Part shown: piece after piece, positions 3,877 through 54,939 of the stretch | Layout: every line of letters begins with the position of its first letter | Position numbering within the stretch: position 1 is the stretch's first letter | NCBI GenBank assembly: GCA_035264195.1 | Contig: DATFQQ010000217.1 | Location: 2,028-66,027, forward strand | From: Candidatus Sulfotelmatobacter sp. | GTDB lineage: Bacteria > Acidobacteriota > Terriglobia > Terriglobales > Acidobacteriaceae | Reading direction: 5' to 3' | Length of the DNA: 64,000 nt | Made by a program: the position numbers and the translations under genes | The notes under the pieces: generated by a model | Told to the model about the DNA's origin: nothing | What the model saw: only the letters and a program-made list of their open reading frames with translations | Database searches by the model: none

Positions 3877-3890
3877 AGTAAACGTTTTCT
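3877..3890. promoter_or_regulatory. LacI-type palindromic operator AGTAAACGTTTTCT
   Basis: Inverted repeat centred on CG at 3883-3884, about 20 nt downstream of the -10 element and 65 nt upstream of the TBDR start. One of nine related sites in the window. Confidence 0.6.
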
Positions 3891-3954
3891 CGCTGGAGCG
3901 AGTCCCTGACGTCCGGCCTTTTTAATTAAGACGCGCAATATTTGGGAGGCACCC

Positions 3955-6900
3955 ATGCCAGGATGCATGTTGTCCCGCCGATCTGTTGGAGTACTTTCCG
4001 CGATTCTGTTGTTCGCAGCTACTGCCTTTGCACAATTCACCGCCAGCATTCAAGGCGTTATTCAAGATCAGAGTGGTGCCGGAGTCGGCAAAGCTACCGT
4101 GCAATTGTCGAACGTTGCGACGGGTGTGACGACCCTGACTACCTCAGACACGGATGGGAACTATCGCTTCGTCAGCCTCGCACCCGGCAAGTACAAAGTC
4201 ACTGCCGAGGCAGCCGGGTTTGCCAAGTCCGAGGCAGATGTCACCCTGCTCACCGAACAGAACCTGAACCTGCCGATAGCTCTAAAGGTCGGCTCGGTGA
4301 GTGAGTCGGTGGTGGTGAGCACTGAAGCTCCAGTGGTTGACACCGCGGATAGCCGTACCCACCTGACCATCGAGAATCAGGCAGTCGCGCAGTTGCCGAT
4401 CATTGGCCGGAACCTGGTCACGCTGGTTACGATGGCGCCGGGGGTTTCAGGTCTCGGAACCAGCACCTCGGGCAGCCCTGCTTCAGGCGTCGACAACTAC
4501 TCGACCGAAGAGCAGGTGGACGCGAGTGCAAACGGTCAAGGCCAGAACAACAATCAGTACGTCGTAGATGGCCTTGATGTGACGAGCGGAATCCGGCAGG
4601 GTGTTCTGAATCTGACTCCGCAACCGGAATCGATTCAGGAAACCAGCATTCAGGTGAATACATTCTCTACGGAGCACAGTCGCGCTGCGGGCCTGCAGAC
4701 TATATTCACAACGAGATCGGGGACGGATTCGTTTCACGGCTCTGCGTCGGATTGGTTCAATTACCAGGGGATGTACGCGAACCAGCACTTCGTCAGTTCG
4801 GCAGAAAGCAAGTACAAACCTTTCCACTCGAATAATATGGATTTCGCGATCGGCGGACCGATTATTCCGCACCACAACAGCTTTTTCTATTTTGCCGTGG
4901 AGCCGCTACGGTCATCGGCGAGCGCGGGCGGGCTAGTTACGTTTGCCGCTCCGGAATTTATCTCGTGGGCGCAAGCTCATCATGCGGGCACGGTGGGAAC
5001 ACACGTGCTCAGCACGTATCTTCCTACTGGCGTCGGGAATGTCAGTGCCGAAACGGCTGATGCTTACTTCGGGCAAGATGCGAGTGGCAACCCGATTTGC
5101 GGCACCGCTGCAGTGGACAACATTCCCTGCAACCTGCCGATGCAGGACACGGGTTCATTTGGCGCCACTCAAATCCGTAACGGCACACAATATTTTGCCC
5201 GAATCGATCAAGGTTTCAAGAGGGATCGAGTCTATGTCAGTTTGTTCCGGACGCTCTTGCAGACGGGTGCCGCATCTCCTATGCCACAGTTCTCAGCCTT
5301 GAACAATACGTGGCAAGTGGCGGGGCAGGCGTCGTGGACGCACACTTTCTCAGCGAATACGTTGAACGAGTTCACGGCCGGACAAAGCAGGGTCGAGGGC
5401 GTATTGGGCAGTGGCGCTAAAGATTACACAATACCATCGATCTCGGTGAATGGAATCAACGCTGACGGAGGCCAAGCCTACGGCGTAGGATTCGCCCAAG
5501 GTGACTTCATCCAGCATAACTATCACTGGCGTGATGTGCTCACCCACGTTAAAGGTACGCACACCTTAAAGTTCGGGTATGAAGGCTGGTATGGCGATGA
5601 CGTTGAGCCGTTCCAGGGCCCGTGGTCACAGCCAAAGTTTGCCTTCGACAACTTGCTCAAGCTAGCTCAGGATGCCCCTACCAACGAGAACGGGATTATG
5701 TACAACCCGGCCACCGGCCAACAGCAATTGTGGAATTGGGACGCGGCGGCGAGGACCTTCGGGCTCTTTGTGGAAGACACATGGAAAGCAAGGAGGAATC
5801 TGACGGTAACGTTGGGTTTGCGCTATGACGACAGCGGCAATCCCTGGTCAAAGAGCGATTCAACCGTGTTCGGAAACTTCTATCTGGGAACGGGCACCAC
5901 GACGGAGCAGCAAATCGCGAATGGATATGCCAAAGGCACGCACAATGCTCTGCTCCATTCTGTGAACAACCTGTTTAGTCCGCGTATTGGGGTTGCATGG
6001 GATCCTACAGGCAACGGAGACTGGGTAGTCCGCGGAGGTTTTGGTATCTACAACAATTGGCTGACTTCGGCCAATGTGCAGGAGGAATTCCGTGGAAGTC
6101 CGCCGGGCCTGGTGCTGCCTACATTTTTCGCGGGCGGTACGGCAACAGCAGATGCCCCGATCTTTGTCCTCGGCAACAGCGGCAAACCGCCTTTTGGTTT
6201 TACCTTCCCGACCTTCCAGGGTGGATTGAATGCTCAAGGAGGAGTCGTAGGAGCGAGTTTCGGAATCGGCGGCATCAATCCGTTGCTGAAATCGCCAACA
6301 GCCGATATCTGGTCGATTAGTGTCCAACGCAAGATCAGCCGGGTCTTTGCGGCGAGTGTTGGATACAGCGGATCACACTCGTACAACATTGTTGGCAACG
6401 GCAATTCGATCGGCAACGTGTCGTACGGCGTGGACATCAACGTGCTGCCCGGAGACTTGATCACACACCAGAGCAAGGTCCCAACTCGTCTGAATCCGAG
6501 TTTCGGGGGCATTCTCTATGCCGATAACAATCGGTACGGGAATTACAATGGGGTCTTCTTCGATATTAAGGGCCGATTCTCGCGTGGGTTCCTCGATTTC
6601 TCTTACACGCGCTCCAGTTCGAAGGATGATGGATTGGCATATCCTACGCCGACGAATCCGGCGCAGTACTATGCACCGTCGACTTTCGATGTACCGAACC
6701 GCTTTTCTTTGAGCTTCAATTATTCGCTTAGAGGATTGAACGACGGCAAAGGAGCAGTCGGATACCTCACCAGCGGGTGGGGGGCGAGTGGTACGACCAT
6801 CTTCCAATCCGGCTATCCGCTGATGGCGCGAAATCTTAATTCCTACAATCCGATTTGCGCTGACACGTCGGCGACCGCTGCCCCATGCCCATCCCAGGCA

Positions 6901-7305
6901 AATCCCGCGGTAGGTTACGCACCGGGGAGCGGTGACTACAACGCCGACGGTAACAACCTTGATTATCCCGACGCGGTCAGCTACCGTCAGTTGACGGACA
7001 ACAAGGCATGGTTGACAGGGGCGATTCCCGCAAGCGATTTTGCCGTGCCCACATTTGGGCAAGGTGGGAATGAGAAGCCATACCAGTTCCGTGCACCAAA
7101 CTTCTTTGAGACAAACGTCAACTTCTACAAAGACACGCGCATCACGGAGCGCGTAGCCTTCCAATTCCGGTTTGAGCTCTTCAACATCTTTAACCGGGCA
7201 AACTACGCGAACGTGGATGACAACTTGCCGGATTCATCGTTCGGATTGGCAACAGCCTCGCATGAGCCGCGATTCTGGCAGCTTGGAGGCAGGATTTCTT
7301 TCTGA
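3955..7305 (+). CDS. TonB-dependent outer-membrane receptor with N-terminal carboxypeptidase-regulatory-like domain
   Basis: GGGAGG RBS 8 nt upstream. Signal peptide ending AFAQ. CarboxypepD_reg-like beta-sandwich (IQGVIQDQSGAGVGKATVQLSNVATG...DGNYRFVSLAPGKYKVTAEAAGF). Long beta-rich body. C-terminal barrel signature ...QLGGRISF ending in Phe. Confidence 0.9.
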   Translation: MPGCMLSRRSVGVLSAILLFAATAFAQFTASIQGVIQDQSGAGVGKATVQLSNVATGVTTLTTSDTDGNYRFVSLAPGKYKVTAEAAGFAKSEADVTLLTEQNLNLPIALKVGSVSESVVVSTEAPVVDTADSRTHLTIENQAVAQLPIIGRNLVTLVTMAPGVSGLGTSTSGSPASGVDNYSTEEQVDASANGQGQNNNQYVVDGLDVTSGIRQGVLNLTPQPESIQETSIQVNTFSTEHSRAAGLQTIFTTRSGTDSFHGSASDWFNYQGMYANQHFVSSAESKYKPFHSNNMDFAIGGPIIPHHNSFFYFAVEPLRSSASAGGLVTFAAPEFISWAQAHHAGTVGTHVLSTYLPTGVGNVSAETADAYFGQDASGNPICGTAAVDNIPCNLPMQDTGSFGATQIRNGTQYFARIDQGFKRDRVYVSLFRTLLQTGAASPMPQFSALNNTWQVAGQASWTHTFSANTLNEFTAGQSRVEGVLGSGAKDYTIPSISVNGINADGGQAYGVGFAQGDFIQHNYHWRDVLTHVKGTHTLKFGYEGWYGDDVEPFQGPWSQPKFAFDNLLKLAQDAPTNENGIMYNPATGQQQLWNWDAAARTFGLFVEDTWKARRNLTVTLGLRYDDSGNPWSKSDSTVFGNFYLGTGTTTEQQIANGYAKGTHNALLHSVNNLFSPRIGVAWDPTGNGDWVVRGGFGIYNNWLTSANVQEEFRGSPPGLVLPTFFAGGTATADAPIFVLGNSGKPPFGFTFPTFQGGLNAQGGVVGASFGIGGINPLLKSPTADIWSISVQRKISRVFAASVGYSGSHSYNIVGNGNSIGNVSYGVDINVLPGDLITHQSKVPTRLNPSFGGILYADNNRYGNYNGVFFDIKGRFSRGFLDFSYTRSSSKDDGLAYPTPTNPAQYYAPSTFDVPNRFSLSFNYSLRGLNDGKGAVGYLTSGWGASGTTIFQSGYPLMARNLNSYNPICADTSATAAPCPSQANPAVGYAPGSGDYNADGNNLDYPDAVSYRQLTDNKAWLTGAIPASDFAVPTFGQGGNEKPYQFRAPNFFETNVNFYKDTRITERVAFQFRFELFNIFNRANYANVDDNLPDSSFGLATASHEPRFWQLGGRISF

Positions 7306-7331
7306 CACAGGGACAACATCAACCAACCAAC

Positions 7332-7367
7332 CCGGCCGCCTCGCCAGAAGCGGCCGGCCCTCTTTTG
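7332..7367 (+). terminator. intrinsic terminator-like hairpin
   Basis: CCGGCCGC (7332-7339) pairs with GCGGCCGG (7350-7357) and is followed by CCCTCTTTTGT. It lies 27 nt after the TBDR stop. Confidence 0.55.
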
Positions 7368-7533
7368 TACGCCGTTGTGAATGCCGCGTTTGATCTCGGT
7401 GACTGGGCCTACGAGTTGGATTGCTTCGATTAGTATGTACGTGGCGCGTTCGAATGTTGTGGAGCATTGGACGCCAACTACAATCTTGGGCCCATACCAT
7501 TCAAAGCGATTTCAATGGTTGCGAAGCTGGCGG

Positions 7534-8991
7534 ATGTTTCTCTGCATCGTCAGTCTGTTGCTTCCTTCTGCCTTCGGCCAGAGTCCGAAAGGCAGAGTCG
7601 ACGAGATTGCGACTGCGCTCCAATCCAAGAACTTTGATCGGGCTCTTGAACTTTTGCACACATCCCTACAGGAGATGCCATCGAACGGCGAACTCTGGGC
7701 GATGCAGGGAGCAGCGTATGCCGGGCAAGGAGATCCGAAACGAGCAGTCGCCTCTTTCCGACGAGCGCTAGAGCTCTCGCCAGACAACATTCCTGCTCTT
7801 CATGGTGCGATCCAAATCGAATACGACAACGGTGATGCGGCTGCGATCCCTCTATTGCAGCATTTGCTGAAGCTCCGGCCCGAAGAATCAATGAGTCATG
7901 CCATGCTGGCCGTCTTGGAATACCAACAGGGGAAATGCTCTTCTGCCATCGTTCATTTCGAGAAGGCTGGTTCGTTGTTCGATCAACAACTGCCCGCCCT
8001 TCATGCCTATGCGACCTGTTTGGTGAGACTTCGCCGGCTGGAAGCCGCAGCGGATGTTTTGCAGCGAGCCCTATCGCTTAACCCAGACGATCAGCGCGAG
8101 CGACAGCTTTTGGCTTGCCTGCAACTCATGATCAAGAAGCCTGAGGACGCACTTACGACTCTAACGCCGCTGCTTGCGGGCGATCATGTGGACTCTGGAA
8201 CGTTGGAACTTGCGTCCGGAGCATATGAGGATACTCACAATACGGAGAAGGCGGTGGATGCCCTGCGGCAGGCGATTTTGCTTGATCCGCAGAATGTGCA
8301 GTTGTATGTGGATTTTGCTGCGTTGTCAGCCGCGCACCAATCGTTTCAAGTTGGAATCAATGTGGTGAACGACGGGATCGGGCTACAGCCAAAAGCGGCT
8401 GCGCTATATTTTGCCCGCGGAATGTTGTATGTGCAGTTGTCCGATTATGAGAAGGCACAAGCCGACTTCGAACGCGCATACGAGCTGGATCCAACTCAAT
8501 CGTTGACCACCGCCGCCCAAGGCCTGTCAGCAGTCCAGCAAAATGATCTGGACGGCGCGCTCACAACCGTTCAGCAAAAGCTGGCGAGCCGGCCGAAGGA
8601 TCCGATATTGCTTTATCTGCAAGCCGATGTTCTTGTGCAGAAGGGAGCAGAGCCCGGCAGCCCAGAATTTCAAACCGCGATGCGTTCAGCCAAGACCGCA
8701 GTTGCGCTGCGCCCAACCCTCGGACCGGCTCGGGCGGTGCTCGCCAAACTTTACATTCAAGCAGGGGACTATCCTGAGGCCGCTGTCCAATGCCGAAAAG
8801 CATTAGAGATTGACCCTAAAGATCAAACCTCGCTTTATCATCTCATTCAGGCGCTGCGAAAGGGCGATAAGCAGAATGAGATTCCTGACCTGCTGAAACG
8901 CCTTGCTGTTCTTCGCCAGGAAGCCAGTAAAGAAGAAAGGGAACAATACCGCTACAAGCTGGTGGAAGGCGACACTCAGTCTCGGCAATGA
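7534..8991 (+). CDS. secreted TPR protein, paralog B of 418..1911
   Basis: ORF 7381..8991. ATG at 7534 gives the signal MFLCIVSLLLPSAFGQ. It aligns without gaps, by eye, to the 418..1911 product (for example QSFQVGINVVNDGIGLQPKAAALYFARGMLYVQLSDYEKAQADFERAYELDP versus QSFQVGVDMMSAGLKLQPNAAPLYLARGVLYVQLADYDHAEADFEKAEELDP). Confidence 0.85.
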   Translation: MFLCIVSLLLPSAFGQSPKGRVDEIATALQSKNFDRALELLHTSLQEMPSNGELWAMQGAAYAGQGDPKRAVASFRRALELSPDNIPALHGAIQIEYDNGDAAAIPLLQHLLKLRPEESMSHAMLAVLEYQQGKCSSAIVHFEKAGSLFDQQLPALHAYATCLVRLRRLEAAADVLQRALSLNPDDQRERQLLACLQLMIKKPEDALTTLTPLLAGDHVDSGTLELASGAYEDTHNTEKAVDALRQAILLDPQNVQLYVDFAALSAAHQSFQVGINVVNDGIGLQPKAAALYFARGMLYVQLSDYEKAQADFERAYELDPTQSLTTAAQGLSAVQQNDLDGALTTVQQKLASRPKDPILLYLQADVLVQKGAEPGSPEFQTAMRSAKTAVALRPTLGPARAVLAKLYIQAGDYPEAAVQCRKALEIDPKDQTSLYHLIQALRKGDKQNEIPDLLKRLAVLRQEASKEEREQYRYKLVEGDTQSRQ

Positions 8992-11031: not shown

Positions 11032-11048
11032 GCGAATCCTCCAGTTCT

Positions 11049-11062
11049 GGGAAACGTTTTCT
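11049..11062. promoter_or_regulatory. LacI-type operator GGGAAACGTTTTCT
   Basis: Centred on CG at 11055-11056. It lies 3 nt downstream of the minus-strand -10 element and 18 nt upstream of the GH127-like start codon. Confidence 0.6.
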
Positions 11063-12155: not shown

Positions 12156-12169
12156 TGTAATCGCTTACT
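12156..12169. promoter_or_regulatory. LacI-type operator TGTAATCGCTTACT
   Basis: Fits the AAnCGnTT core, centred on CG at 12162-12163. It is about 65 nt upstream of the AKR start, in the divergent AKR/GH51 intergenic region. Confidence 0.45.
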
Positions 12170-12331: not shown

Positions 12332-12360
12332 TTGACAAGGATTTGCCATCAGAATATAAC
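12332..12360 (+). promoter_or_regulatory. sigma70-like promoter TTGACA-N17-TATAAC
   Basis: TTGACA at 12332-12337, a 17-nt spacer, and TATAAC at 12355-12360. It lies upstream of the GH51/GH127 gene pair. Confidence 0.55.
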
Positions 12361-12374: not shown

Positions 12375-12388
12375 AGAAAGCGTTTACT
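12375..12388. promoter_or_regulatory. LacI-type operator AGAAAGCGTTTACT
   Basis: Centred on CG at 12381-12382, 15 nt downstream of the TATAAC -10 element. Confidence 0.55.
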
Positions 12389-14165: not shown

Positions 14166-14177
14166 AGGAGAGCCTCC

Positions 14178-17986: not shown

Positions 17987-18024
17987 CACGGATAGAGTTG
18001 TCTCCACTCTTGCGATCCGGCGTT

Positions 18025-20746: not shown

Positions 20747-20847
20747 CAGCAGGCTCCGTGGGTACAGTTGGTGAAAAAGCGTGCAAAGTCCCGGGTCGCT
20801 ATATATTTCGAGTCATTTCTCATCAAGGGATCCGCAAGGGCACTGTG

Positions 20848-20861
20848 AGTAATCGTTTTCC
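20848..20861. promoter_or_regulatory. LacI-type operator AGTAATCGTTTTCC
   Basis: Centred on CG at 20854-20855, 11 nt downstream of the minus-strand -10 candidate and about 100 nt upstream of the araB start. Confidence 0.55.
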
Positions 20862-20871
20862 TGAAGCACCT

Positions 20872-20900
20872 ACATTAGTCCGCCGCCTTGTGAAATGCAA
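20872..20900 (-). promoter_or_regulatory. sigma70-like promoter TTGCAT-N17-TAATGT (minus strand)
   Basis: Reverse complement of 20895-20900 is TTGCAT. Reverse complement of 20872-20877 is TAATGT. The spacer is 17 nt. It would drive the araB-mutarotase-GH39 operon. Confidence 0.45.
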
Positions 20901-20972
20901 CCATTTCAAAGCACATGCCGAAGGCGTCTGAGAGCTGATATTTCAGTCAACGGCTGGTCTAGTGAGAACAAG

Positions 20973-22099: not shown

Positions 22100-22113
22100 G
22101 GAAAACGTTTTCC
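22100..22113. promoter_or_regulatory. LacI-type operator, perfect palindrome GGAAAACGTTTTCC
   Basis: A perfect 14-bp inverted repeat, 57 nt upstream of the LacI-family gene start and 21 nt after the stop of the 933-aa gene. It suggests autoregulation. Confidence 0.65.
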
Positions 22114-29312: not shown

Positions 29313-29326
29313 GGTAAGCGTTTACT
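29313..29326. promoter_or_regulatory. LacI-type operator GGTAAGCGTTTACT
   Basis: Centred on CG at 29319-29320, in the 148-bp divergent region between the MFS operon and the GH31 gene. A minus-strand TATAAT lies at 29296-29301 and a plus-strand TACAAT at 29345-29350. Confidence 0.55.
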
Positions 29327-31624: not shown

Positions 31625-31695
31625 GCGTGCGTTGCGGTTTCGGTGTCGGGGCCATGAGCGATATACTTCGTCACACAGTGCCTTTACCTTTCCTC

Positions 31696-34376: not shown

Positions 34377-34383
34377 GCTCCTA

Positions 34384-37372: not shown

Positions 37373-37400
37373 TTGACAACGGGACGGAATAAAGTATACA
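37373..37400 (+). promoter_or_regulatory. sigma70-like promoter TTGACA-N16-TATACA upstream of second TBDR
   Basis: TTGACA at 37373-37378 and TATACA at 37395-37400. Hexamers and spacing are identical to 3836-3863. Confidence 0.5.
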
Positions 37401-37414: not shown

Positions 37415-37428
37415 GGAAAACGTTTTCT
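37415..37428. promoter_or_regulatory. LacI-type operator GGAAAACGTTTTCT
   Basis: Centred on CG at 37421-37422, 21 nt after the -10 element, in the divergent CRTAC1/TBDR intergenic region. Confidence 0.6.
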
Positions 37429-41528: not shown

Positions 41529-41856
41529 CACGTCAGTGAATCAACTCACTTCGCAGATGCATTCCTGGGACCAGCGCATGATGCTTGGAATCGGGAATGC
41601 ATTCTTTTTCTTGTTTCCGACTGAGAAGTGCTGCTCAAGCATCCAGGCGCAGGGTCGGATGGCCCAGTGTGCACCACTTCTGGCAGTCATCTTGAGGCAC
41701 TTGTCGCTTTTGTCGAGTGTAGGACCTGTAAATTAACCCTAAACTAGCCGTTTCTTTCATGCCAAACGTTAAATACCTTTCTCGATCGCAAAGCAAAGGG
41801 ACACGAAAGAAAAAGCGGAATCACGAGGCAGGACCACAGCAGCTTTCAACCGCTCC

Positions 41857-44166: not shown

Positions 44167-44206
44167 TTGTTGTCTGTGGTGGCCTGAAACTTAGAGAGAG
44201 TCTCGG

Positions 44207-46558: not shown

Positions 46559-46601
46559 ATTAGGGCTGTATTGTGTACATGTAAAGAAGGGGTGGTCGAC
46601 G

Positions 46602-47741
46602 ATGAAATCCAGATTCTTGATCGTCTTTTTATTGACAATAGCATGCAGCGCGATGGCTGCCGATTCCACGTTAGCCGCGACTCCGCCAATGGGCTGGAAC
46701 AGCTGGAACCACTTTGCCTGCAAAGTGGCGGCCGACGATGTTCGCGCAGCCGCCGATGCTATCGCCAGTAACGGGATGAAGGACGCCGGCTATGTTTACG
46801 TCAATATCGACGACTGCTGGCAGGGAGATCGCGACGTGCAGGGCAGGATTCGACCCAACGCAAGGTTTCCCGACATGAAAGGCTTGGTGGACTACATTCA
46901 CAGCAAAGGATTGAAAGCTGGTATTTACTCTTCGCCGGGACCGAAAACGTGCGCCAAATACGAAGGCAGCTATCAGCACGAAGAGCTAGACGCGCAGCAA
47001 TACGCCGAGTGGGGATTCGACTACCTTAAATACGACTGGTGCAGCGCAGAGAGGGTCTATCAGCACAGTGACATGATCGCGGTGTACAAGAAAATGCATG
47101 ACGCGCTCGTCCGTACTGGACGGCCGATCGTTTTCAGTTTGTGTCAGTACGGCTATGAACGAGTGTGGCGCTGGGGGGCATCAGTCGGGGGCAACTTATG
47201 GCGCACGACAGAAGACATCAACGATCACTACGACCGGATGTCGGTCATTGGATTCGACCAGAATGGGTTAGAGTCATTCGCTGGAGCGGGACACTGGAAT
47301 GACCCCGACATGCTTGAAGTGGGAAACGGCGGGATGAATCACGACGAATATATTACCCACATGAGTCTTTGGGTCTTGCTCGCTGCGCCGCTGTTGGCAG
47401 GGAATGATCTGTCAAAAATGAGCCAGGAGACATTGGACATCCTCACCAATAAGGAGGTGGTTGCGGTCGATCAGGATTTGAAAGGGCAGCAAGGACGCCG
47501 CGTCGCACAAGAAGGTCCGCTGGAGGTGTGGGCGAAACCTCTCGCTGACGGCTCGGTTGCGGTTGGCCTGTTCAATCGTGGCGAATCAGTGAATCCAATT
47601 ACGGTCAATTTGAAAGATATCGGATTTCGGAAGCAAGTCCAGGTTCGTGACCTGTGGCAGCACAAGAGCTTGGGATCTTTTGAGGGAAGTTTTACGGCGC
47701 AAGTTCCGCGTCACGGTGCCGTTCTCGTGAAGGTGCAGTAG
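46602..47741 (+). CDS. GH27 alpha-galactosidase, secreted
   Basis: ORF 46509..47741, trimmed to the ATG at 46602 (signal MKSRFLIVFLLTIACSAMA). GH27 motifs are present: PPMGWNSWNHF, VNIDDCWQ, YLKYDWC (nucleophile Asp), WNDPDMLEVGN. Confidence 0.9.
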   Translation: MKSRFLIVFLLTIACSAMAADSTLAATPPMGWNSWNHFACKVAADDVRAAADAIASNGMKDAGYVYVNIDDCWQGDRDVQGRIRPNARFPDMKGLVDYIHSKGLKAGIYSSPGPKTCAKYEGSYQHEELDAQQYAEWGFDYLKYDWCSAERVYQHSDMIAVYKKMHDALVRTGRPIVFSLCQYGYERVWRWGASVGGNLWRTTEDINDHYDRMSVIGFDQNGLESFAGAGHWNDPDMLEVGNGGMNHDEYITHMSLWVLLAAPLLAGNDLSKMSQETLDILTNKEVVAVDQDLKGQQGRRVAQEGPLEVWAKPLADGSVAVGLFNRGESVNPITVNLKDIGFRKQVQVRDLWQHKSLGSFEGSFTAQVPRHGAVLVKVQ

Positions 47742-47771
47742 GGAAGTGAGATTCGGGGCGAGACTAGATAT

Positions 47772-48500
47772 TTATGATTTGGAACGTCGACCCGCGTTTT
47801 CCGGCTCGATCTGAGATTCCTTGCGCTTTTGTTCGAGCACTTCCTTGAGAGAGTCGCCCGCGTGCAGGATGTGGACGCGCAGAAGTTCGCAGGCCGCGGT
47901 AACGTCGCGCTGACGACAAAATTCAAGGATCTGGTGATGCTCTTCATTCGCGCGCTGCACACCATGGGTCAAGTACAACTGCAGCCGCGTATAGCGTTCG
48001 CCGCTGTTGTTGACGTTGCGGATGATGGCCATGAAGCGGGGTTGATTGGCTCGAGAATAAAGAATGGAATGAAATTGCCAGTTCAGGCGTCCCCAGGCTG
48101 AAAGATGTTCAGGCCGGCGGAGTTCGCTGACGTACTTTCGTAGCACTGCATCCGCTTCAGAGAAGTCCTCTTCAGTCAGATGAGGTATCGACAACTTCAG
48201 GACTTCTGGCTCGAGCAGGGCACGGATTGAGAACAGTTCTCCGATATCACTCGGCGATAGTGCCGGAACGATCGCACCACGGTTGGGAACGATGGCAATG
48301 AGACCTTCAGCGTCGAGCTGGCGAAGCGCCTCACGGACCGGGATGCGGCTCACCTGATATTGGGTAGCAATCGCGTCCTGGCGGAGTTGAGCTCCTTCGG
48401 GGATTTCGCCCCGGATGATTTGCTCCCGCAGCTTGTCGGCTACCGCAGAGGGCAGCGACTGGCGAGGAATGCCGGAGTAGGATTGGTTCTCGAGGTCCAT
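47772..48500 (-). CDS. GntR-family transcriptional regulator (FadR/FCD subfamily)
   Basis: Winged HTH LREQIIRGEIPEGAQLRQDAIATQYQVSRIPVREALRQLDAEGLI, followed by a helical FCD-like C-terminal domain. Confidence 0.9.
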   Translation of the reverse strand: MDLENQSYSGIPRQSLPSAVADKLREQIIRGEIPEGAQLRQDAIATQYQVSRIPVREALRQLDAEGLIAIVPNRGAIVPALSPSDIGELFSIRALLEPEVLKLSIPHLTEEDFSEADAVLRKYVSELRRPEHLSAWGRLNWQFHSILYSRANQPRFMAIIRNVNNSGERYTRLQLYLTHGVQRANEEHHQILEFCRQRDVTAACELLRVHILHAGDSLKEVLEQKRKESQIEPENAGRRSKS

Positions 48501-48658
48501 TCGGCGATCTGGCTACGACTCCGAATTGCGCGAATCGAGTATATCGCAGGTTGTATCCAGGAAGATGTTTTGGGGGTATCGGAACGCTTAACAAATGTCC
48601 TTTTTTCATGCGCTTGGAAACCATTTCCGGCGCGGCATAACGGGGATGGGAGAAAGGT

Positions 48659-48691
48659 TTGACGATTGCATATTGTATCCATAATATGGAT
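48659..48691 (+). promoter_or_regulatory. promoter TTGACG-N17-TAATAT overlapped by 15-bp palindrome ATCCATA-A-TATGGAT (candidate GntR operator)
   Basis: TTGACG at 48659-48664 and TAATAT at 48682-48687. The perfect 7-1-7 inverted repeat at 48677-48691 overlaps the -10 element. TTGTATCCA occurs twice, at 48551-48559 and 48673-48681. Confidence 0.55.
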
Positions 48692-48734
48692 CAGAGGTTT
48701 TGTTGAGAGAGTAGTTCGTTAGGCAAATTTTTGG

Positions 48735-49688
48735 ATGATACGCAACGAGTGGCAAAGAGTTAAGGTGATCGACTCCCATACCGGAGGGGAGCCGACCCGT
48801 CTCGTGATCAGCGGTGGTCCTGACCTGGGTAACGGTGATTTGGCAACGAGGTTAGAGCGCTTTCGCCGGGACTACGATACCTTCAGGTCCGCTGTGGTCA
48901 ACGAGCCCAGAGGATCCGATGTGGTGGTCGGCGGACTGCTGTGCAAACCCTTAGATCCGGAATGCGCCTCTGGCGTCATCTTCTTTAATAATGTCGGCTA
49001 CCTCGGGATGTGTGGCCACGGAACTATCGGGCTGGTCGCAACGCTCTGCCATATGAACAGGATTGCTCCAGGCAAACATAAGATCGAGACACCAGTCGGT
49101 GTCGTATCGGCGGTGCTACACGAGAGCGGTGACGTGACAGTAAATAATGTCGCCAGCTACCGCAGCGCGGAGAACGTGAAAGTAACGGTTCCGAATTATG
49201 GGGATGTCTATGGTGACGTCGCTTGGGGTGGAAACTGGTTTTTTCTGGTGCGCCATCATGAGAGGGAACTTAGCCTCAAGAACGTCGATGAACTAACGGC
49301 TTTCACCTGGGCCATTCGCGTGGCGTTACGAGAAAACCGGATTACTGGTGACCACGGGAAAGAAATCGACCATGTGGAGTTATTCGCCGCATCCCAAAAA
49401 ACAGGGGTCGACAGCAAGAATTTCGTACTTTGTCCTGGCAAGGCTTATGACCGCTCTCCTTGCGGAACTGGCACCAGCGCAAAGTTGGCTTGCCTCTATG
49501 CAGACGGGAAAATCAAAGAAGGACAGACTTGGCGGCAAGAGAGCATTGTTGGCAGCGTTTTTGAAGGAAGCATAAGGGTGGAAGGCGGCAAGGTATATCC
49601 GAGCATCAAGGGCTCTGCTTTCGTGAATGCGGAAGCAGATCTGTTGCTGAACCCGAAAGATCCGCTCTGCATGGGCATTCGCGTCTGA
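48735..49688 (+). CDS. 4-hydroxyproline 2-epimerase (proline racemase family)
   Basis: VIDSHTGGEPTRLV. Both catalytic Cys motifs are present (GYLGMCGHGTIG and DRSPCGTGTSA), which indicates an epimerase/racemase rather than a dehydratase member of the family. Confidence 0.85.
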   Translation: MIRNEWQRVKVIDSHTGGEPTRLVISGGPDLGNGDLATRLERFRRDYDTFRSAVVNEPRGSDVVVGGLLCKPLDPECASGVIFFNNVGYLGMCGHGTIGLVATLCHMNRIAPGKHKIETPVGVVSAVLHESGDVTVNNVASYRSAENVKVTVPNYGDVYGDVAWGGNWFFLVRHHERELSLKNVDELTAFTWAIRVALRENRITGDHGKEIDHVELFAASQKTGVDSKNFVLCPGKAYDRSPCGTGTSAKLACLYADGKIKEGQTWRQESIVGSVFEGSIRVEGGKVYPSIKGSAFVNAEADLLLNPKDPLCMGIRV

Positions 49689-49695
49689 CTTGGAT

Positions 49696-50826
49696 ATGAG
49701 CAAACCTGCATACGACATCGTGATCGTGGGCGCTGGAATAGTCGGTGCGGCGTGCGCCGACGCTTTCACCGAGCGCGGTCTGAGAGTTGTCGTTGTCGAT
49801 CGTGATGTTGTTGGCAGCGGAGCAACGGCCGCCGGTATGGGCCACATTGTCGTCATGGACGACTCCGATGCTCAGTTTGCTTTGACGAATTACTCGCAGC
49901 GATTGTGGCAGCAACTGAAACCGGAACTTCCAAACAACGTCGAGTACGAGCAACCCGGAACGATTTGGGTGGCTGCCGATGACGAAGAGATGGCCGAGGT
50001 CTTTCGCAAGCGCGACTACTACCAAAAACGTGGAGTTGCGGTTGACGTTTTAGATCATCAGCAGCTCCAAGAAGTCGAGCCGAACCTGCGGGAGGGACTC
50101 GCGGGAGGATTGCTGGTTACTAGCGATGGCGTTCTATACCCACCGTGTGCCGCACGATTTCTCATGACACGCGCACAACAACGCGGAGCCAAGCTCAGGC
50201 TGGGCGCTTCCGTAACTCAGATTGCGGAGCAAAAAGTCCGGCTTAGCGACCATCAGGAAATCTCAGCTGGAATTATTGTGAATGCTGCTGGCGCGAGCGC
50301 TGCCGACCTTACGCCGGCCATCGCCATCAAGAAGCGCAAGGGTCATCTCGTGATTACCGACCGCTATCCTGGTTTTCTGCGTCATCAACTCGTCGAGCTT
50401 GGATATCTGAAGAGTGCGCACTCGGTGTCGAGCGATTCAGTAGCATTCAACGTGCAGCCTCGCAGTACCGGCCAAATCTTGATTGGGTCGTCACGGCAAT
50501 ATGGGGCCGAGCACAAGGAAGTAGACCATTCGATGCTGGCAAAGATGATCCGTCGAGCTGAAGAGTACATGCCCGCGCTCGGGATGATGTCAGCGGTGCG
50601 CGTGTGGACCGGTTTTCGCGCAGCCACACCTGACAAGTTGCCGCTTGTCGGTCCCTGTCCGGGATATCGATCTTTGTGGCTGGCAACGGGGCATGAAGGC
50701 TTGGGAATTACGACTTCGCTCGGAACCGCACGACTCCTGGTAGATCAGGTGACCGGGTCCAAAACGGAGATTGCAGCCGAACCATATTTGCCGTCGCGTG
50801 CTGTCACTGAATATGCACATGCCTAA
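49696..50826 (+). CDS. FAD-dependent oxidoreductase, D-hydroxyproline dehydrogenase beta-subunit-like
   Basis: ATG at 49696. Dinucleotide-binding start YDIVIVGAGIVGAACA. DAO-family length. Confidence 0.8.
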   Translation: MSKPAYDIVIVGAGIVGAACADAFTERGLRVVVVDRDVVGSGATAAGMGHIVVMDDSDAQFALTNYSQRLWQQLKPELPNNVEYEQPGTIWVAADDEEMAEVFRKRDYYQKRGVAVDVLDHQQLQEVEPNLREGLAGGLLVTSDGVLYPPCAARFLMTRAQQRGAKLRLGASVTQIAEQKVRLSDHQEISAGIIVNAAGASAADLTPAIAIKKRKGHLVITDRYPGFLRHQLVELGYLKSAHSVSSDSVAFNVQPRSTGQILIGSSRQYGAEHKEVDHSMLAKMIRRAEEYMPALGMMSAVRVWTGFRAATPDKLPLVGPCPGYRSLWLATGHEGLGITTSLGTARLLVDQVTGSKTEIAAEPYLPSRAVTEYAHA

Positions 50827-51064
50827 TGAGTTCACAGTCACGGTAAATGGAACACCCGTTTCGGTGTCGCAAGGTGCAACGGTTGCCGTTGCCCTCATGA
50901 TGGCAGGACGGCCATGCAGGAAGTCGACGACGGGAGAGCCGCGTGGACCGTTATGTGGTATGGGGATCTGCTTCGAATGCCGCGCGGTCGTCAATGGCAT
51001 TCCACATTCTCGCAGCTGTCAACTGTTATGCGAACCCGGCATGGAAGTAAGAACGGATGAATAG
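50819..51064 (+). CDS. small (2Fe-2S)-binding subunit, D-hydroxyproline dehydrogenase gamma-like
   Basis: ORF 50771..51064. The ATG at 50819 (or 50813) overlaps the upstream stop. Cys cluster CRKS...CGMGICFECR, typical of HcnA/opine-oxidase-type small subunits. Confidence 0.7.
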   Translation: MPNEFTVTVNGTPVSVSQGATVAVALMMAGRPCRKSTTGEPRGPLCGMGICFECRAVVNGIPHSRSCQLLCEPGMEVRTDE

Positions 51065-52364
51065 TTACTCTCAGCAACGGTTCGATGTCCTCATCGTCGG
51101 TGGAGGTCCCGCTGGCATGGCGGCAGCCGTATCCGCAGCTAAGAGCGGCGTGCGGGTCGGTATCGTCGACGAGAACCCGAGTCTAGGAGGTCAAATCTGG
51201 CGTGGCGAGACGTCAAGCGGTTCGCACTCCGTGGAAGCCTCCAGTTGGCTGAATCAAGTAAAGACTTCTAGCGTGACACACCTCCAGGGAAAAAGAGTCT
51301 TCCATCAACCCGAACCCGGGGTTCTTTTGGCAGAAGGCCTTGACGATGTGGCTGAACTGAGCTACCGCACGCTAGTGTTGGCGACCGGCGCTCGAGAAAG
51401 GTTCCTGCCTTTTCCGGGCTGGACGCTGCCGAACGTAACTGGCGCCGGTGGGTTGCAAGCGCTCGTGAAGTCGGGTCTGCCAATTAAGGGCAAACGCGTC
51501 GTTGTAGCCGGGACCGGTCCGCTCCTGCTTGCTGTTGCCGCCTATCTTCGCAAGCATGGCGCAGAGATCCCAATGATTTGCGAACAAGCATCATGGAGCA
51601 GGCTGGCGAAATTCGGCCTAACCCTTTTGAGTCAGCCCGGCAAGGTCGCCCAAAGTCTGCACCTGAAGAAAGACATTGCCGGCATTTCGTTCGTTGCGAA
51701 TAGTTGGCCGCTTGCGGCTCACGGAAAAAATGCACTGGAAGCCGTGACGATCTCGCGTAGTGGCAAGTCTGAGGTTGTTAAGTGCGACTATCTCGCCTGC
51801 GGATTCCATCTGGTGCCCAATGTCGAACTGCCTGTTTTGATGGGATGTCAAACTCGCTGTGGCTATGTGCAGGTCAACGACCTTCAGCAAACCACAGTCA
51901 AAGATATCTTCTGTGCTGGTGAGCCGACTGGCGTTGGCGGAGTAGAGATAGCCCTCATGGAAGGGCAGATCGCCGGGCTAGCCGCTACGGGGCAGGTGTG
52001 CGAAGCGAAGACTCTCTTTCGTAAACGGGATAAGCTTCGCCGCTTTGCGCACGCATTGGACGAATCATTTTGCCTGCGTTCCGAACTTAGAAGTCTGCCC
52101 GCGTCCGACACTCTCGTGTGCCGATGTGAAGACGTTCCATACTCTCACCTGCGCGAGCACACCTGCTGGCGTTCCGCCAAACTGCACACGCGGTGCGGAA
52201 TGGGACCTTGTCAGGGAAGAATTTGTGGACCCGCCACGCAGTTCCTTTTCAAGTGGAATCCGGATTCGGTTCGGCCCCCGGTATTTCCAGCACGTGTTGA
52301 AAATCTGGCAGTCACCCCAGCATCCCAGCAGTCGATCCCAGCGGTTACAGGAGGGCTTCAATGA
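51057..52364 (+). CDS. FAD/NAD(P)-binding oxidoreductase, D-hydroxyproline dehydrogenase alpha-subunit-like
   Basis: FDVLIVGGGPAGMAAA plus a second dinucleotide fold RVVVAGTGPLLLAVAA. C-terminal Cys-rich tail CRCEDV...CGMGPCQGRIC. The start overlaps the upstream stop. Confidence 0.8.
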   Translation: MNSYSQQRFDVLIVGGGPAGMAAAVSAAKSGVRVGIVDENPSLGGQIWRGETSSGSHSVEASSWLNQVKTSSVTHLQGKRVFHQPEPGVLLAEGLDDVAELSYRTLVLATGARERFLPFPGWTLPNVTGAGGLQALVKSGLPIKGKRVVVAGTGPLLLAVAAYLRKHGAEIPMICEQASWSRLAKFGLTLLSQPGKVAQSLHLKKDIAGISFVANSWPLAAHGKNALEAVTISRSGKSEVVKCDYLACGFHLVPNVELPVLMGCQTRCGYVQVNDLQQTTVKDIFCAGEPTGVGGVEIALMEGQIAGLAATGQVCEAKTLFRKRDKLRRFAHALDESFCLRSELRSLPASDTLVCRCEDVPYSHLREHTCWRSAKLHTRCGMGPCQGRICGPATQFLFKWNPDSVRPPVFPARVENLAVTPASQQSIPAVTGGLQ

Positions 52365-53284
52365 ACTGGAAAGGCGTTACGCCGGCAATTACCACCCCTT
52401 TCAACGGGAATCTTACCGTCGATCACGGATTCCTGGCAGAACACTGCCGCTGGCTGCTGGATAACGGATGCGCCGGTGTAGTCGCGTTGGGGTCGCTCGG
52501 TGAGGGCGCAACTCTTACGTTCGACGAGAAAACAGAAATTCTTCGCACGCTCGGGAAGGCCACTCATGGAAAAGGTACTCTTGTGGCTTCGATTTCCTCG
52601 TTGACTACTTCAGAGTCTGTGGAACTTGCGAAAGCCGCGACCGATCTGGGATGTTCGGGGCTCATGGTTTTGCCGCCGTATGTCTACCTCGGAGATTGGC
52701 GTGAAATGAAAGCCCATGTCGCTGCGGTATTTCGCGCGACACCGCTTTCCTGCATGCTGTACAACAACCCGGTGGCGTACGGAACCGATTTCGTGCCTGA
52801 GCAGATTCAGGAACTGGCCTTGGAATTCGAAAACTTCAAAGCTGTGAAAGAATCCAGTACGGATGCGCGTCGTGTCTCAGCAATCCGTGCCCTCGTTGAC
52901 CAGCGACTTGAAATCTCCGTTGGAGTGGACGACGCCGTTCTCGAGGCAATCGGGGTCGGAGCGACCGGATGGGTTGCCGGCCTGGCAAATGCTCTCCCGC
53001 GCGAATCTGTAGATCTGTTCAACTACGGAATTCAAGGGGAAAGCGCCAGGGCATTTGAGTTATACCGCTGGTTCCTACCATTGCTCAGAATGGATACCGT
53101 CCCAAAATTTGTTCAACTGATCAAGCTGGTACAAGCCGAAGTTGGGATGGGAAATACTCGTGTCAGGCCTCCGCGGCTTGAGATTGTGGGAGCCGAACTC
53201 GATCAGACCAATGCAATCATCCGCGACGCATTGCGAACTCGCCCAGAGTTGGTGAGTTCGTATGCAGTTCCAGTCAGGAAGTGA
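52361..53284 (+). CDS. dihydrodipicolinate-synthase-family lyase, likely delta1-pyrroline-4-hydroxy-2-carboxylate deaminase
   Basis: DHDPS/NAL-family N-terminus GVTPAITTPF and the FKAVKESS Schiff-base Lys region. ATGA overlap with the upstream gene. The specific function is inferred from operon context. Confidence 0.75.
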   Translation: MNWKGVTPAITTPFNGNLTVDHGFLAEHCRWLLDNGCAGVVALGSLGEGATLTFDEKTEILRTLGKATHGKGTLVASISSLTTSESVELAKAATDLGCSGLMVLPPYVYLGDWREMKAHVAAVFRATPLSCMLYNNPVAYGTDFVPEQIQELALEFENFKAVKESSTDARRVSAIRALVDQRLEISVGVDDAVLEAIGVGATGWVAGLANALPRESVDLFNYGIQGESARAFELYRWFLPLLRMDTVPKFVQLIKLVQAEVGMGNTRVRPPRLEIVGAELDQTNAIIRDALRTRPELVSSYAVPVRK

Positions 53285-53288
53285 ACTT

Positions 53289-54881
53289 ATGTTAAGTGTA
53301 ATGGAAAAACTTTCGGGGCACTCGCTCATCGGTTTCCAAGAGGGCAGGGGGACCGGTGTTCCTCTGTACGCGCGAGATCCCACGACCGGTCAGCAGTTGC
53401 AGCCAGGTTTCATTCCCGCGACTGCGGAGGAAGTCGATCGCGCGGTCCAACTCGCGGCAGATGCTTTCAAAATCTACAGTCGGACATCCGGACGTGAACG
53501 CGGTGCATTCCTGCGGAAAATCGCGGCGAGCATCGAAGCCATTGCCGCTGACATTATAGAAAGGGCCGCTCAGGAGACCGCGCTTCCAGTCGCTCGTCTG
53601 CAAGGCGAGACCGCCCGTACCTGTAATCAACTTCGATTGTTCGCTCAGGTTGCGGAAGAGGGATCGTGGGTCAACGCTCGAATCGATCATGCCGAGCCTG
53701 ACCGCAAGCCAGCGCCGAAACCAGATATTCGCTCGCTGATGCGGCCGCTCGGTCCGGTGGTCGTGTTTGGCGCAAGCAATTTCCCACTCGCCTTTTCGGT
53801 CGCCGGTGGAGATACCGCATCGGCGTTGGCCGGTGGAAACACCGTGATCGTCAAGGCGCACGCGGCTCACCCAGGCACCGGTGAATTGGTGGGTCGTGCC
53901 TTGCAAGAGAGTGCTCGTGAATGTGGCATGCCAGAAGGGGTCTTCTCACTGCTGTTCGGGCACGGCTCAGAGATTGGAACGGCGCTCATGAAGCACCCAC
54001 TGGTGCGCGCCGGTGGCTTCACAGGCTCTCGCACGGCGGGCCGAATCCTGATGGACATCGCTGCCTCTCGCCCGGAGCCGATGCCTTTCTATGCAGAGAT
54101 GAGCAGCACGAATCCGGTCTTCATTCTGCCGGGAGCCTTGCGCGAGCGTGGCGCGAGTATTGCGTCCGGGCTGCACACGTCGTTCACCCTGGGGGCTGGA
54201 CAATTCTGCACCAAGCCCGGGATGGTTTTTCTTGAGAAGAGTCCAGAGGCCGACCGATTTGCCCGCAAGCTAAGCGAATTGGTCACAGGATCGTCAGGCT
54301 TCCACCTTCTCACCGAAGCGATCCACTCGTCATATGGCTCCTCGATCGCCAAGCGGAAAGCCGATCCCATTGTAACCACGCTGGTGGAAAGACAAGGTCC
54401 TGAGGCGAAAGGTTTCTGCGCCGATCCCATGGTGTTCGAGACCGATGCCGATTCATTTCTTGGCTCCGAACTGGACGCCGAGATCTTCGGCCCAACCACG
54501 CTGTTGGTGCGCCATTCGAGCCGCGAGCAGATTATTAAGATCGCAAATTCTCTTGAAGGCCATCTGACTGCAACAATTCATGGGACGGAGCAAGACCTTC
54601 GCGACTTTTCCGATCTCGTTGCCATTCTCGAAACGAAGGTGGGACGGTTGATCTTCAACGGTTTCCCCACAGGAGTCGAAGTCACACACGCCATGGTCCA
54701 CGGCGGTCCGTATCCTTCGACATCCGATGGGCGCTCAACTTCAGTCGGAACTCAGGCGATCTTTCGCTTCGCACGGTTAGTCTGCTACCAGGGATTTCCC
54801 GACGCCGCTCTGCCTGATGAACTGAAAGAGGCCAACCCATTGGGGATCTGGCGAATGGTCGACGGAAATTTCCGCAACTAG
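53289..54881 (+). CDS. aldehyde dehydrogenase, alpha-ketoglutarate-semialdehyde dehydrogenase-like
   Basis: ORF 53262..54881, trimmed to the ATG at 53289. ALDH motifs are present: FYAEMSSTNPVF and the catalytic Cys in GAGQFCTKPG. Confidence 0.85.
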   Translation: MLSVMEKLSGHSLIGFQEGRGTGVPLYARDPTTGQQLQPGFIPATAEEVDRAVQLAADAFKIYSRTSGRERGAFLRKIAASIEAIAADIIERAAQETALPVARLQGETARTCNQLRLFAQVAEEGSWVNARIDHAEPDRKPAPKPDIRSLMRPLGPVVVFGASNFPLAFSVAGGDTASALAGGNTVIVKAHAAHPGTGELVGRALQESARECGMPEGVFSLLFGHGSEIGTALMKHPLVRAGGFTGSRTAGRILMDIAASRPEPMPFYAEMSSTNPVFILPGALRERGASIASGLHTSFTLGAGQFCTKPGMVFLEKSPEADRFARKLSELVTGSSGFHLLTEAIHSSYGSSIAKRKADPIVTTLVERQGPEAKGFCADPMVFETDADSFLGSELDAEIFGPTTLLVRHSSREQIIKIANSLEGHLTATIHGTEQDLRDFSDLVAILETKVGRLIFNGFPTGVEVTHAMVHGGPYPSTSDGRSTSVGTQAIFRFARLVCYQGFPDAALPDELKEANPLGIWRMVDGNFRN

Positions 54882-54893
54882 TTTAAGAAAGCA

Positions 54894-54915
54894 AGCCCGG
54901 CTGAAGAGCCGGGCT
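54894..54915 (+). terminator. terminator-like hairpin AGCCCGGCT-GAAG-AGCCGGGCT
   Basis: A perfect 9-bp stem starting 13 nt after the ALDH stop. The downstream T-tract is weak (GTTCA). Confidence 0.45.
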
Positions 54916-54925
54916 GTTCAGCGAA

Positions 54926-54939
54926 AGTAAACGTTTGCC
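54926..54939. promoter_or_regulatory. LacI-type operator AGTAAACGTTTGCC
   Basis: Centred on CG at 54932-54933. It ends only 12 nt before the GH127-like start codon and begins 11 nt after the hairpin. Confidence 0.5.

Follow-up and report, generated by a model that had tools for sequence, protein, structure and literature searches.

A predicted LacI-family regulon for arabinoside utilisation in a Candidatus Sulfotelmatobacter genome

Introduction

Acidobacteriota rank among the most abundant bacteria of soils and are hard to culture, and to our knowledge almost none of their transcriptional regulons has been mapped. A stretch of 64,000 nucleotides from Candidatus Sulfotelmatobacter sp., an uncultured soil bacterium of the Acidobacteriaceae/Terriglobia (assembly GCA_035264195.1, contig DATFQQ010000217.1, positions 2,028-66,027 of the forward strand), hereafter the window, raises the question of how arabinoside utilisation may be controlled in this phylum, since copies of a 14-bp palindrome stand upstream of glycoside hydrolase (GH), transporter and sugar-catabolic genes around a gene for a LacI-family regulator. 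An original prediction had listed nine such copies and read them as LacI-type operators by which this regulator controls a single regulon over 51 kb. The analysis reported here recovers ten palindromes, which are very probably operators of the LacI-family protein encoded at 20973-22043, as judged from the sequence and its comparison with related genomes. The predicted regulon in the window comprises 12 transcription units and about 24 genes, including the outlying gene GH127_3.

Sequences and scans

The palindromes were scored with a symmetrised, palindromic position weight matrix (PWM) built only from the nine listed sites, and scores of at least 14 bits were counted as matches. Controls were 100 dinucleotide-preserving shuffles of the window for the exact pattern, and 150 column-permuted palindromic PWMs for the matrix. 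Related loci were collected by a scan with the regulator protein, keeping one genome per species, which yielded 80 loci (1.49 Mb). All come from metagenome-assembled genomes of Acidobacteriaceae/Terriglobia, many of which are labelled Ca. Sulfotelmatobacter, and their regulators are 76-88% identical to that of the window. The regulator protein itself, with an identical sequence, was found on JGI soil metagenome contigs (Ga0126381, Ga0126376), and the nearest metagenome-assembled genomes encode versions at 86-88% identity. Orthologs of GH127_3 were gathered by a separate metagenome scan with the GH127_3 protein (loci L082-L160). Gene identities were taken from Pfam and NCBIfam, which confirmed the gene labels of the original prediction, and promoters were read by eye, backed by cross-genome conservation.

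A 14-bp palindrome upstream of gene starts

All nine 14-mers of the original prediction are present with the sequences given for them; each is centred on CG and lies in intergenic DNA outside long open reading frames (ORFs), and the copy at 22100-22113 is the perfect palindrome it was said to be. The count is nonetheless one short, as the PWM scan adds a tenth site at 382-395. The sites and the genes that they precede are as follows (TBDR, TonB-dependent transporter; AKR, aldo/keto reductase).

382-395: AGTAAACCTTTTCT, centre CC, 17.1-17.2 bits; 22 nt 5′ of ATG 418, where the TPR_a-ASPIC_a unit probably begins
3877-3890: upstream of TBDR1-TPR_b (3955-8991, plus strand)
11049-11062: upstream of GH127-like 1 (GH127L1; 11031-9166, minus strand)
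12156-12169: the weakest site, 15.4 bits; upstream of AKR (12095-11133, minus strand)
12375-12388: upstream of GH51-GH127_2 (12519-16244, plus strand)
20848-20861: upstream of araB-mutarotase-GH39 (20746-16256, minus strand)
22100-22113: GGAAAACGTTTTCC, perfectly palindromic, 56 nt 5′ of the start of LacI; predicted autoregulatory site
29313-29326: common to the divergent MFS unit (29250-22134, minus strand) and GH31-TPR-ASPIC-TPR unit (29399-35568, plus strand)
37415-37428: common to TBDR2 (probable start ATG 37491, plus strand) and ASPIC_d (37305-35572, minus strand)
54926-54939: 12 nt upstream of the start of GH127_3 (54952-57390, plus strand; GH127 plus DUF6805)

Short palindromes of this kind could be chance matches, or remnants of dispersed repeats or mobile elements, with no regulatory role. 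AT-rich palindromes are indeed commoner in intergenic DNA, and the bare 8-bp core AANCGNTT is not enriched in the window (26 found against 19.4 expected), so that the fit to the LacI core AAnCGnTT noted in the original prediction, although true, is no evidence by itself and the signal resides in the full 14-mer. For the latter, six of the nine listed sites match RGWAANCGNTTWCY exactly, against an expectation of 0.04 ± 0.20 (none of the 100 shuffles reached six), while the sites at 11049, 12156 and 54926 carry one mismatch each. PWM scores in the window are bimodal, with ten sites at 15.4-23.3 bits and the next best match at 7.8 bits, and the ten matches reaching the cut-off compare with a mean of 0.59 (maximum 6) for the permuted matrices. 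Moreover, the positions are kept before orthologous genes in at least 80 genomes while their flanks diverge. A longer repeat is excluded because sequence information is confined to the 14 bp: the flanks hold at most 0.2 bits per position over 239 distinct sites, and PWMs of 18 and 20 bp separated the sites no better than the 14-bp PWM. The whole motif is the 14-mer, and an origin by chance or from repeats is effectively refuted.

The consensus of the ten sites reads RG[T/A/C]AA[A/T]C in its left half and G[T/A]TT[A/T/G]CY in its right half. The centre is CG in nine of them, site 382 (CC) being the exception, and in 242 of the 251 matches found across the related loci. All ten lie in intergenic DNA, which makes up about 6% of the window (site 382 being intergenic given a corrected gene start). 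From 208 to 37439 there are nine intergenic regions that exceed 90 bp and face a gene start; every one of them carries a site, and together they hold nine of the ten. No PWM score above 7.7 bits was found in the intergenic regions at 41529-54881 and beyond 57391.

Site 382 falls inside a mechanically called ORF (289-1911), whose true start is likely ATG 418, followed by a signal-peptide-like sequence (MAGMRCLF...). A CC/GG-centred variant, AGAAAAGGTTTTCT, is kept upstream of TBDR2 orthologs in 7-8 loci, where it is the promoter-proximal TBDR site, and since it recurs there, site 382 is better seen as a conserved variant than as noise. A 14-mer identical to site 382 is also present in one locus of the GH127_3 collection (L102).

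Conservation in related genomes

In the 80 related loci, 251 matches were found against 12.8 ± 12.7 for the 150 permuted PWMs, again with bimodal scores. Of these matches, about 233 stand before a gene start or at it, and only 18 fall deep inside ORFs, in keeping with the intergenic placement originally claimed.

The same loci connect the motif to the regulator gene. Of the 80 loci, 78 have a site in front of the LacI ortholog and 69 have a second one 50-190 nt past its stop codon, which agrees with the earlier assignment of the gene at 20973-22043 as the predicted regulator. The genes that follow this second site are usually araD (Aldolase_II)-SSF transporter-araA-like (Fucose_iso_C)-araB-mutarotase-GH39, and this position ties the regulator to L-arabinose catabolism. 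Other targets recur as well, with sites at the GH31 and MFS sides of the divergent region in 27 and 20 loci, at GH51 in 17, TBDR2 in 16, GH127 genes in 15 and 13, and AKR in 8; DUF5695 is also among the recurrent target loci.

Two further links that had been proposed are supported by this comparison. The TPR, ASPIC (originally called CRTAC1) and TBDR genes recur as TPR-ASPIC-ASPIC-[site][site]-TBDR modules beside the LacI ortholog in at least eight other genomes. In most of the 27 loci that carry DUF5695, the 933-aa protein, its gene closes the MFS operon and immediately precedes that of LacI.

The outlying GH127_3 site behaves differently from the others. A high-scoring site stands 13-90 nt upstream of the gene in about 13 of some 32 orthologs at ≥78% identity, always between the stop of the aldehyde dehydrogenase gene and the GH127_3 ribosome-binding site and with diverging flanks, and it is rare in more distant orthologs. 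From these alignments, GH127_3 is predicted to be a lineage-specific member of the regulon.

The LacI-family regulator

The candidate regulator is encoded by the only LacI-family gene among the ORFs of the window, as searched with Pfam.

20973-22043: minus strand, LacI-family regulator, 356 aa; helix-turn-helix (HTH) and type-I periplasmic-binding-protein sugar domain

The HTH is a PF00356 domain (residues 3-47, E 6e-14, 52 bits against a cutoff of 27), and the effector-type domain matches PF13377 and PF00532. The closest solved structures are those of RbsR from E. coli, CcpA and PurR (E 5e-52 to 1e-44, full-length alignment). These three proteins all bind CG-centred AAnCGnTT palindromes through the recognition helix and a hinge leucine, and the hinge-helix leucine of the LacI family inserts at the central CpG. 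In the window protein, the recognition helix VSTATVSRAIN is almost identical to that of CcpA, ATVSR being common to both, and the hinge YPNTQARALV (ARAL), which aligns with ARSL of RbsR and ARGL of CcpA, is kept in 79 orthologs. Over residues 1-55, the DNA-binding domain, all but a few positions reach a conservation of at least 95% in these orthologs, in agreement with the invariance of the motif. Hence the reading of the 14-mers as LacI-type operators is supported: a CG-centred even palindrome is paired with the window's only LacI gene, whose product has a CcpA-like recognition helix and a hinge leucine.

This likeness raises the question of whether the sites are instead boxes of the cre type, bound by a global catabolite regulator akin to CcpA (the 20973-22043 protein itself or a paralog), without specificity for arabinosides. 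Apart from the recognition helix, RGWAANCGNTTWCY differs from the Firmicute cre (TGWAANCGNTNWCA) essentially only at the outermost base; a few sites in other loci precede AcrB-type and DeoR/SIS genes that are not obviously arabinose-linked; and the size of the regulon (more than 15 genes, at least seven operons) meets part of the definition of a global regulon (PMC4052901). Against this, the NCBIfam score for CcpA is far under the equivalog cutoff (183 against 442 bits). The best score is for RbsR (221 against 531 bits) and that for PurR is 208 against 501 bits; because the protein falls below all NCBIfam cutoffs, it stands outside every named equivalog (RbsR, CcpA, PurR, CytR, GalR/S). The gene is moreover syntenic with ara genes and arabinofuranosidase genes, its targets share a single functional theme, and neighbouring loci of the window (GH27, GH38, ROK, GFO and a hydroxyproline operon) have no site. 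Finally, a site before the regulator's own gene in 78 of 80 loci is what a local regulator would lead one to expect, as autoregulation is found in more than three quarters of local LacI regulators and in less than half of global ones (PMC4052901). A global catabolite regulator is, on balance, improbable.

No C-terminal heptad tetramerisation helix of the LacI type was seen in the regulator by eye. DNA looping between the neighbouring sites 12156 and 12375 was considered and rejected, the spacing of this pair varying from 149 to 256 bp among genomes and the heptad being missing by eye.

Promoters and a model of repression

The operator reading also depends on where the sites lie relative to promoters. 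Sigma-70 promoters close to consensus were read as follows.

TBDR1: TTGACA-16-TATACA, 3836-3863; site 3877 starts 13 nt after the -10
GH127L1: TTGACA-17-CAAAAT, 11093-11065; site 11049 starts 2 nt after the -10
GH51: TTGACA-17-TATAAC, 12332-12360; site 12375 starts 14 nt after the -10
TBDR2: TTGACA-16-TATACA, 37373-37400; site 37415 starts 14 nt after the -10
araB: TTGCAT-17-TAATGT, 20900-20872; site 20848 starts 10 nt after the -10
AKR: site 12156 starts 8 nt after a TTGAAC -35-like hexamer, in the spacer/-10 region
MFS unit: -10 TATAAT, 29301-29296; site 29313 lies 11 nt before the -10
ASPIC_d: -10 TATACT, 37398-37393; site 37415 lies 16 nt upstream of the -10
GH31 unit: TTTACT-18-TACAAT, 29321-29350; the -35 is inside site 29313, which lies 18 nt before the -10
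LacI: extended -10 TGgTAATAT, 22082-22074; site 22100 is 20 nt before TAATAT and overlaps the -35 region

Five sites thus follow a -10 hexamer, as had been claimed, but at a spacing of 2-14 nt rather than 3-21 nt. From the geometry, a single operator would act on a back-to-back pair of divergent promoters both at 29313 and at 37415. Spacings between site and promoter are repeated in the orthologous regions of other genomes: the architectures of GH127L1 and GH51 are each kept in four loci, and the spacings at 29313 in 20 loci on the MFS side and 27 on the GH31 side. In the LacI orthologs, the site is followed by a conserved TGnTAAGAT and ends 21-24 nt upstream of the -10, and the site after the LacI stop in relatives has conserved promoter-like blocks upstream. 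These alignments allow the promoters of the lineage to be modelled as TTGACA-16/17-TATAnn and as extended -10 elements.

It is also worth noting that the AT-rich element AGTATACA within 37373-37400 is usable as a -10 on both strands (TATACA for TBDR2 and TATACT for ASPIC_d), which would give overlapping divergent promoters with a single operator.

On this basis we infer a simple repression mechanism. A dimer of the regulator would bind each palindrome, its two recognition helices (VSTATVSR) reading the G-x-A-A half-sites and its hinge-helix leucines inserting at the central CpG. The sites would overlap the -35 or spacer of a sigma-70-type promoter, or lie no more than about 20 nt 3′ of its transcription start, positions from which a bound dimer would block the binding of RNA polymerase or its escape from the promoter. 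A sugar effector would then bind the periplasmic-binding-protein-type domain and release the repressor, turning on the arabinose-glycan genes. Judging by the content of the regulon, this effector is most likely L-arabinose or a small arabinoside, which is a best guess by analogy.

The geometry at the LacI promoter invites another possibility, in which the same protein is a dual regulator, repressing from sites at or after the transcription start and activating from sites upstream of the -35 (at its own promoter and possibly that of ASPIC_d). There the site stands 20 nt (21-24 nt in orthologs) before a conserved extended -10, with its centre near -40 to -44, and dual action was proposed for the LacI-family AraQ by the same positional logic (PMC5928203). 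However, most LacI-family members are pure repressors, and in the window a site spanning -46 to -33 still overlaps the -35 region. The chance that the protein acts in both ways therefore appears slight.

Genes of the predicted regulon

Apart from GH127_3, the predicted targets form one contiguous block.

418-41528: contiguous target block, 11 predicted transcription units, 23 genes
Units from the left end: TPR_a-ASPIC_a; TBDR1-TPR_b; GH127L1; AKR; GH51-GH127_2; araB-mutarotase-GH39
Units from the regulator onwards: LacI; MFS-MR_MLE-AraD1/GguC-dehydrogenase-DUF5695; GH31-TPR_c-ASPIC_c-TPR_d; ASPIC_d; TBDR2

The two TonB-dependent transporters are both of the CarboxypepD_reg plus OMP_b-brl_4 type, and are accompanied by four TPR proteins and four FG-GAP/UnbV_ASPIC ("CRTAC1-like") proteins. 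The glycoside hydrolases with sites belong to GH51, GH127 (three genes), GH39 and GH31 and are predicted periplasmic arabinofuranosidases. Catabolic functions are represented by the aldo/keto reductase, by the ribulokinase araB, which scores above the NCBIfam ribulokinase equivalog cutoff (550 against 428 bits), and by an aldose 1-epimerase (mutarotase). The MFS-led operon encodes an enolase-superfamily dehydratase (MR_MLE), an AraD1/GguC-family protein, a HIBADH-like dehydrogenase and DUF5695 (933 aa); it is predicted to be a sugar-acid catabolic operon that ends in DUF5695. As called, the mutarotase and GH39 ORFs (16256-19152, minus strand) overlap by 118 nt (18025-18142), and the true GH39 start is probably downstream of the first in-frame start codon.

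Twin-arginine translocation (Tat)-like N-terminal motifs were found in ASPIC_a, ASPIC_c, ASPIC_d, GH127L1, GH51, GH127_2, GH31 and unk783, a protein of the site-free stretch described below. Examples of the motif are RRSFIKG, RRSFLVS, RRHFLKQ, SRRQFVT, RRDVLRG, RRSFLQL, RRKLLKQ and DRRTFLHG.

1967, 32634 and 37305 (minus strand): starts of ASPIC_a, ASPIC_c and ASPIC_d
11031 (minus strand): start of GH127L1
12519 and 14178: starts of GH51 and GH127_2
29399: start of GH31
44207: start of unk783

These motifs suggest that the proteins are exported folded and that processing would take place in the periplasm after TBDR import.

The last gene of the MFS operon deserves separate mention.

22134-24935: minus strand, DUF5695, 933 aa

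No match to DUF5695 was found among PDB sequences with either a single sequence or a profile, and nothing relevant on it was found in the literature searched. Its AF2 model is poor (pLDDT 57) and shows helices in the middle, flanked by a beta-sandwich at either terminus. Among PDB structures, its fold comes closest to 5nok (Foldseek E 1e-16, TM 0.38-0.48), the PL27 L-rhamnose-alpha-1,4-glucuronate (L-Rha-alpha-1,4-GlcA) lyase of gum-arabic arabinogalactan-protein (AGP), an enzyme described in PMC8377490. Because the model is poor and sequence-level support is missing, this PL27-like fold is suggestive only and is kept as a lead.

The site-free stretch and the hydroxyproline operon

The regulon was originally described as spanning 51 kb. 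The sites at both ends of that span are real, but the regulon is not continuous, the stretch from 41.5 to 54.9 kb being free of sites.

41857-47741: S9 DPP-IV-like peptidase, unk783 and GH27, without a site
44207-46558: plus strand, unk783, 783 aa
47772-57390: GntR/FCD regulator and complete 4-hydroxyproline catabolic operon, then GH127_3

The hydroxyproline operon consists of genes for an epimerase, DAO, Pyr_redox_2, a DHDPS-family protein and an aldehyde dehydrogenase, and is probably controlled by the GntR regulator encoded beside it, given this adjacency. The whole stretch (S9-unk783-GH27, GntR and the hydroxyproline operon) is probably outside the regulon. True S9 and unk783 orthologs next to the regulator in one relative (L072) have no site either. 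The protein unk783 has no match in Pfam, NCBIfam or the PDB; it is conserved beside the S9 peptidase in L072 (71% identity) and near GH127_3 orthologs (L120-L130). In the divergent intergenic region between GntR and the hydroxyproline epimerase, a weak imperfect palindrome, TGGAAACCATTTCC (48615-48628), scores 7.7 bits with the LacI PWM and may be a GntR operator or a degenerate LacI-type site.

The order PyrRedox-DHDPS-Aldedh followed by GH127_3, and often then by DUF5695, was found in at least 20 soil metagenome contigs. This synteny, together with the prolyl peptidase and GH27, suggests that the region is an island for the degradation of hydroxyproline-rich glycoproteins (extensins, AGPs).

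A broader reading can be built on this suggestion, tentative and held to be less probable than otherwise: one LacI repressor would coordinate the acidobacterial counterpart of a polysaccharide utilisation locus (PUL), dedicated to plant hydroxyproline-rich glycoproteins and arabinogalactan-proteins. In this reading, the TBDRs would cooperate with TPR proteins and Tat-exported ASPIC/UnbV beta-propellers, which would stand in for SusD, in the capture and import of arabinosylated glycans or glycopeptides. DUF5695 would be a carbohydrate-active enzyme of a new kind, similar in fold to PL27, and the operator between the hydroxyproline operon and GH127_3 would couple arabinose and hydroxyproline signals. 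Both ASPIC/UnbV proteins and TonB-dependent receptors are listed as paralogous families that have expanded in Acidobacteria (PMC3174227), and no function assigned to ASPIC/UnbV proteins was found in the literature searched. If true, the reading would provide a first physiological role for three families, ASPIC/UnbV, TPR and TBDR, of which at least two show this reported expansion (PMC3174227).

Evidence that tempers the operator assignment

Several observations weigh against the ten palindromes being operators of the LacI-family protein as modelled above. The scans took in only 64 kb of this genome and the LacI- or GH127-centred loci of others. At the level of the sites, 382 is without a central CG, and only about 40% of the close GH127_3 orthologs keep theirs. 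With regard to promoters, a strict scan for sigma-70 promoters and terminators showed no enrichment over shuffles and recovered only the GH127L1 and GH31 promoters; it misses the others since it accepts only T as the sixth base of the -10, which in them is C or A. The location of the site centre at the LacI promoter (near -40 to -44, upstream of the extended -10) would fit activation too. No clear promoter is visible at the GH127_3 site 54926.

At this last site, a GC-rich hairpin (54894-54915; nine pairs, seven of them GC) follows the aldehyde dehydrogenase stop and ends 10 nt before the palindrome. It resembles a terminator, except that the plus strand lacks a T-run. As no promoter is visible and the hairpin precedes the site, the operator may, speculatively, be a roadblock to transcription that reads through from the hydroxyproline operon.

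The choice of effector is tempered in the same way. Both araA and araD are absent from the whole 64-kb window, and L-arabinose as effector is consequently an analogy only. In most relatives these genes lie between LacI and araB, as is the case for araD, SSF and araA-like genes in L004, L008, L012 and others; the corresponding gap in the window is 20747-20972, and the SSF gene too is missing from all 64 kb.

Relation to known regulons

What is gained is a concrete, predicted operator-regulator pair for a poorly studied phylum. It allows annotation by shared regulation of the ASPIC/UnbV proteins, the TPR partners of TBDRs and DUF5695, linking them to the turnover of plant arabinosides and glycoproteins in soil. 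For the specialist, this is useful rather than surprising because the mechanism is textbook LacI-family repression and not new. No acidobacterial LacI or arabinose regulon was found in a full-text literature search, and the survey of LacI regulons by Ravcheev et al. (2014; PMC4052901, RegPrecise) covers seven phyla, Acidobacteriota not among them.

In that survey, LacI-family regulators typically bind CG-centred even palindromes, 72% are autoregulated, most sites lie at -140 to -30 and 69% of the regulators control one or two operons (PMC4052901). The system described here resembles the local LacI/GalR regulons in its CG-centred even palindrome, its predicted autoregulation, the adjacency of regulator and targets, the location of sites mostly 30-140 nt 5′ of start codons, and targets devoted to one sugar (glycosidases, transporters and catabolic enzymes). 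It differs from them in that the motif is informative over 14 bp, compared with the 16-22 nt palindromes listed in PMC4052901, and in that 12 units and about 24 genes within 57 kb make an unusually large predicted regulon beside local LacI regulons. Its targets also include TonB-dependent transporters with TPR and ASPIC/UnbV partners, unlike the surveyed local regulons. It is a large predicted local LacI-family regulon, of a known kind, in a phylum outside the published LacI survey.

With respect to the DNA-binding code, the AAnCGnTT core, the ATVSR helix and the hinge leucine are common to the regulator described here and to CcpA with cre, PurR with the PUR box and RbsR with its operator. The outermost base of the motif is R/Y here and T/A in cre. 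No sign of a corepressor such as HPr-Ser-P or a purine was seen, although no search was aimed at one.

By function, the closest likeness is to the predicted LacI-family regulators of Bifidobacterium, AraQ (araBDA) and BauR1/BauR2 (beta-arabino-oligosaccharide, hypBA1/hypBA2) (Arzamasov et al. 2018, PMC5928203). They have in common arabinose catabolism and GH127/GH121 beta-L-arabinofuranosidases acting on hydroxyproline-rich glycoproteins, and repression was deduced from the same positional logic. However, Bifidobacterium divides these functions between several regulators and takes up its substrates through ABC or MFS transporters, whereas here one regulator appears to govern arabinofuranosidases of both the alpha and the beta type, catabolism, and import across the outer membrane of a Gram-negative cell.

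The PULs of Bacteroidota likewise combine a co-regulated TonB-dependent transporter with non-catalytic accessory proteins, periplasmic glycoside hydrolases and inner-membrane transporters. Unlike in those loci, the partners of the transporter here are not SusD homologues, of which there are none, but TPR proteins and Tat-signal ASPIC/UnbV FG-GAP proteins, and the regulator is of the LacI type, in contrast to the hybrid two-component systems, SusR or extracytoplasmic function (ECF) sigma factors of Bacteroidota PULs.

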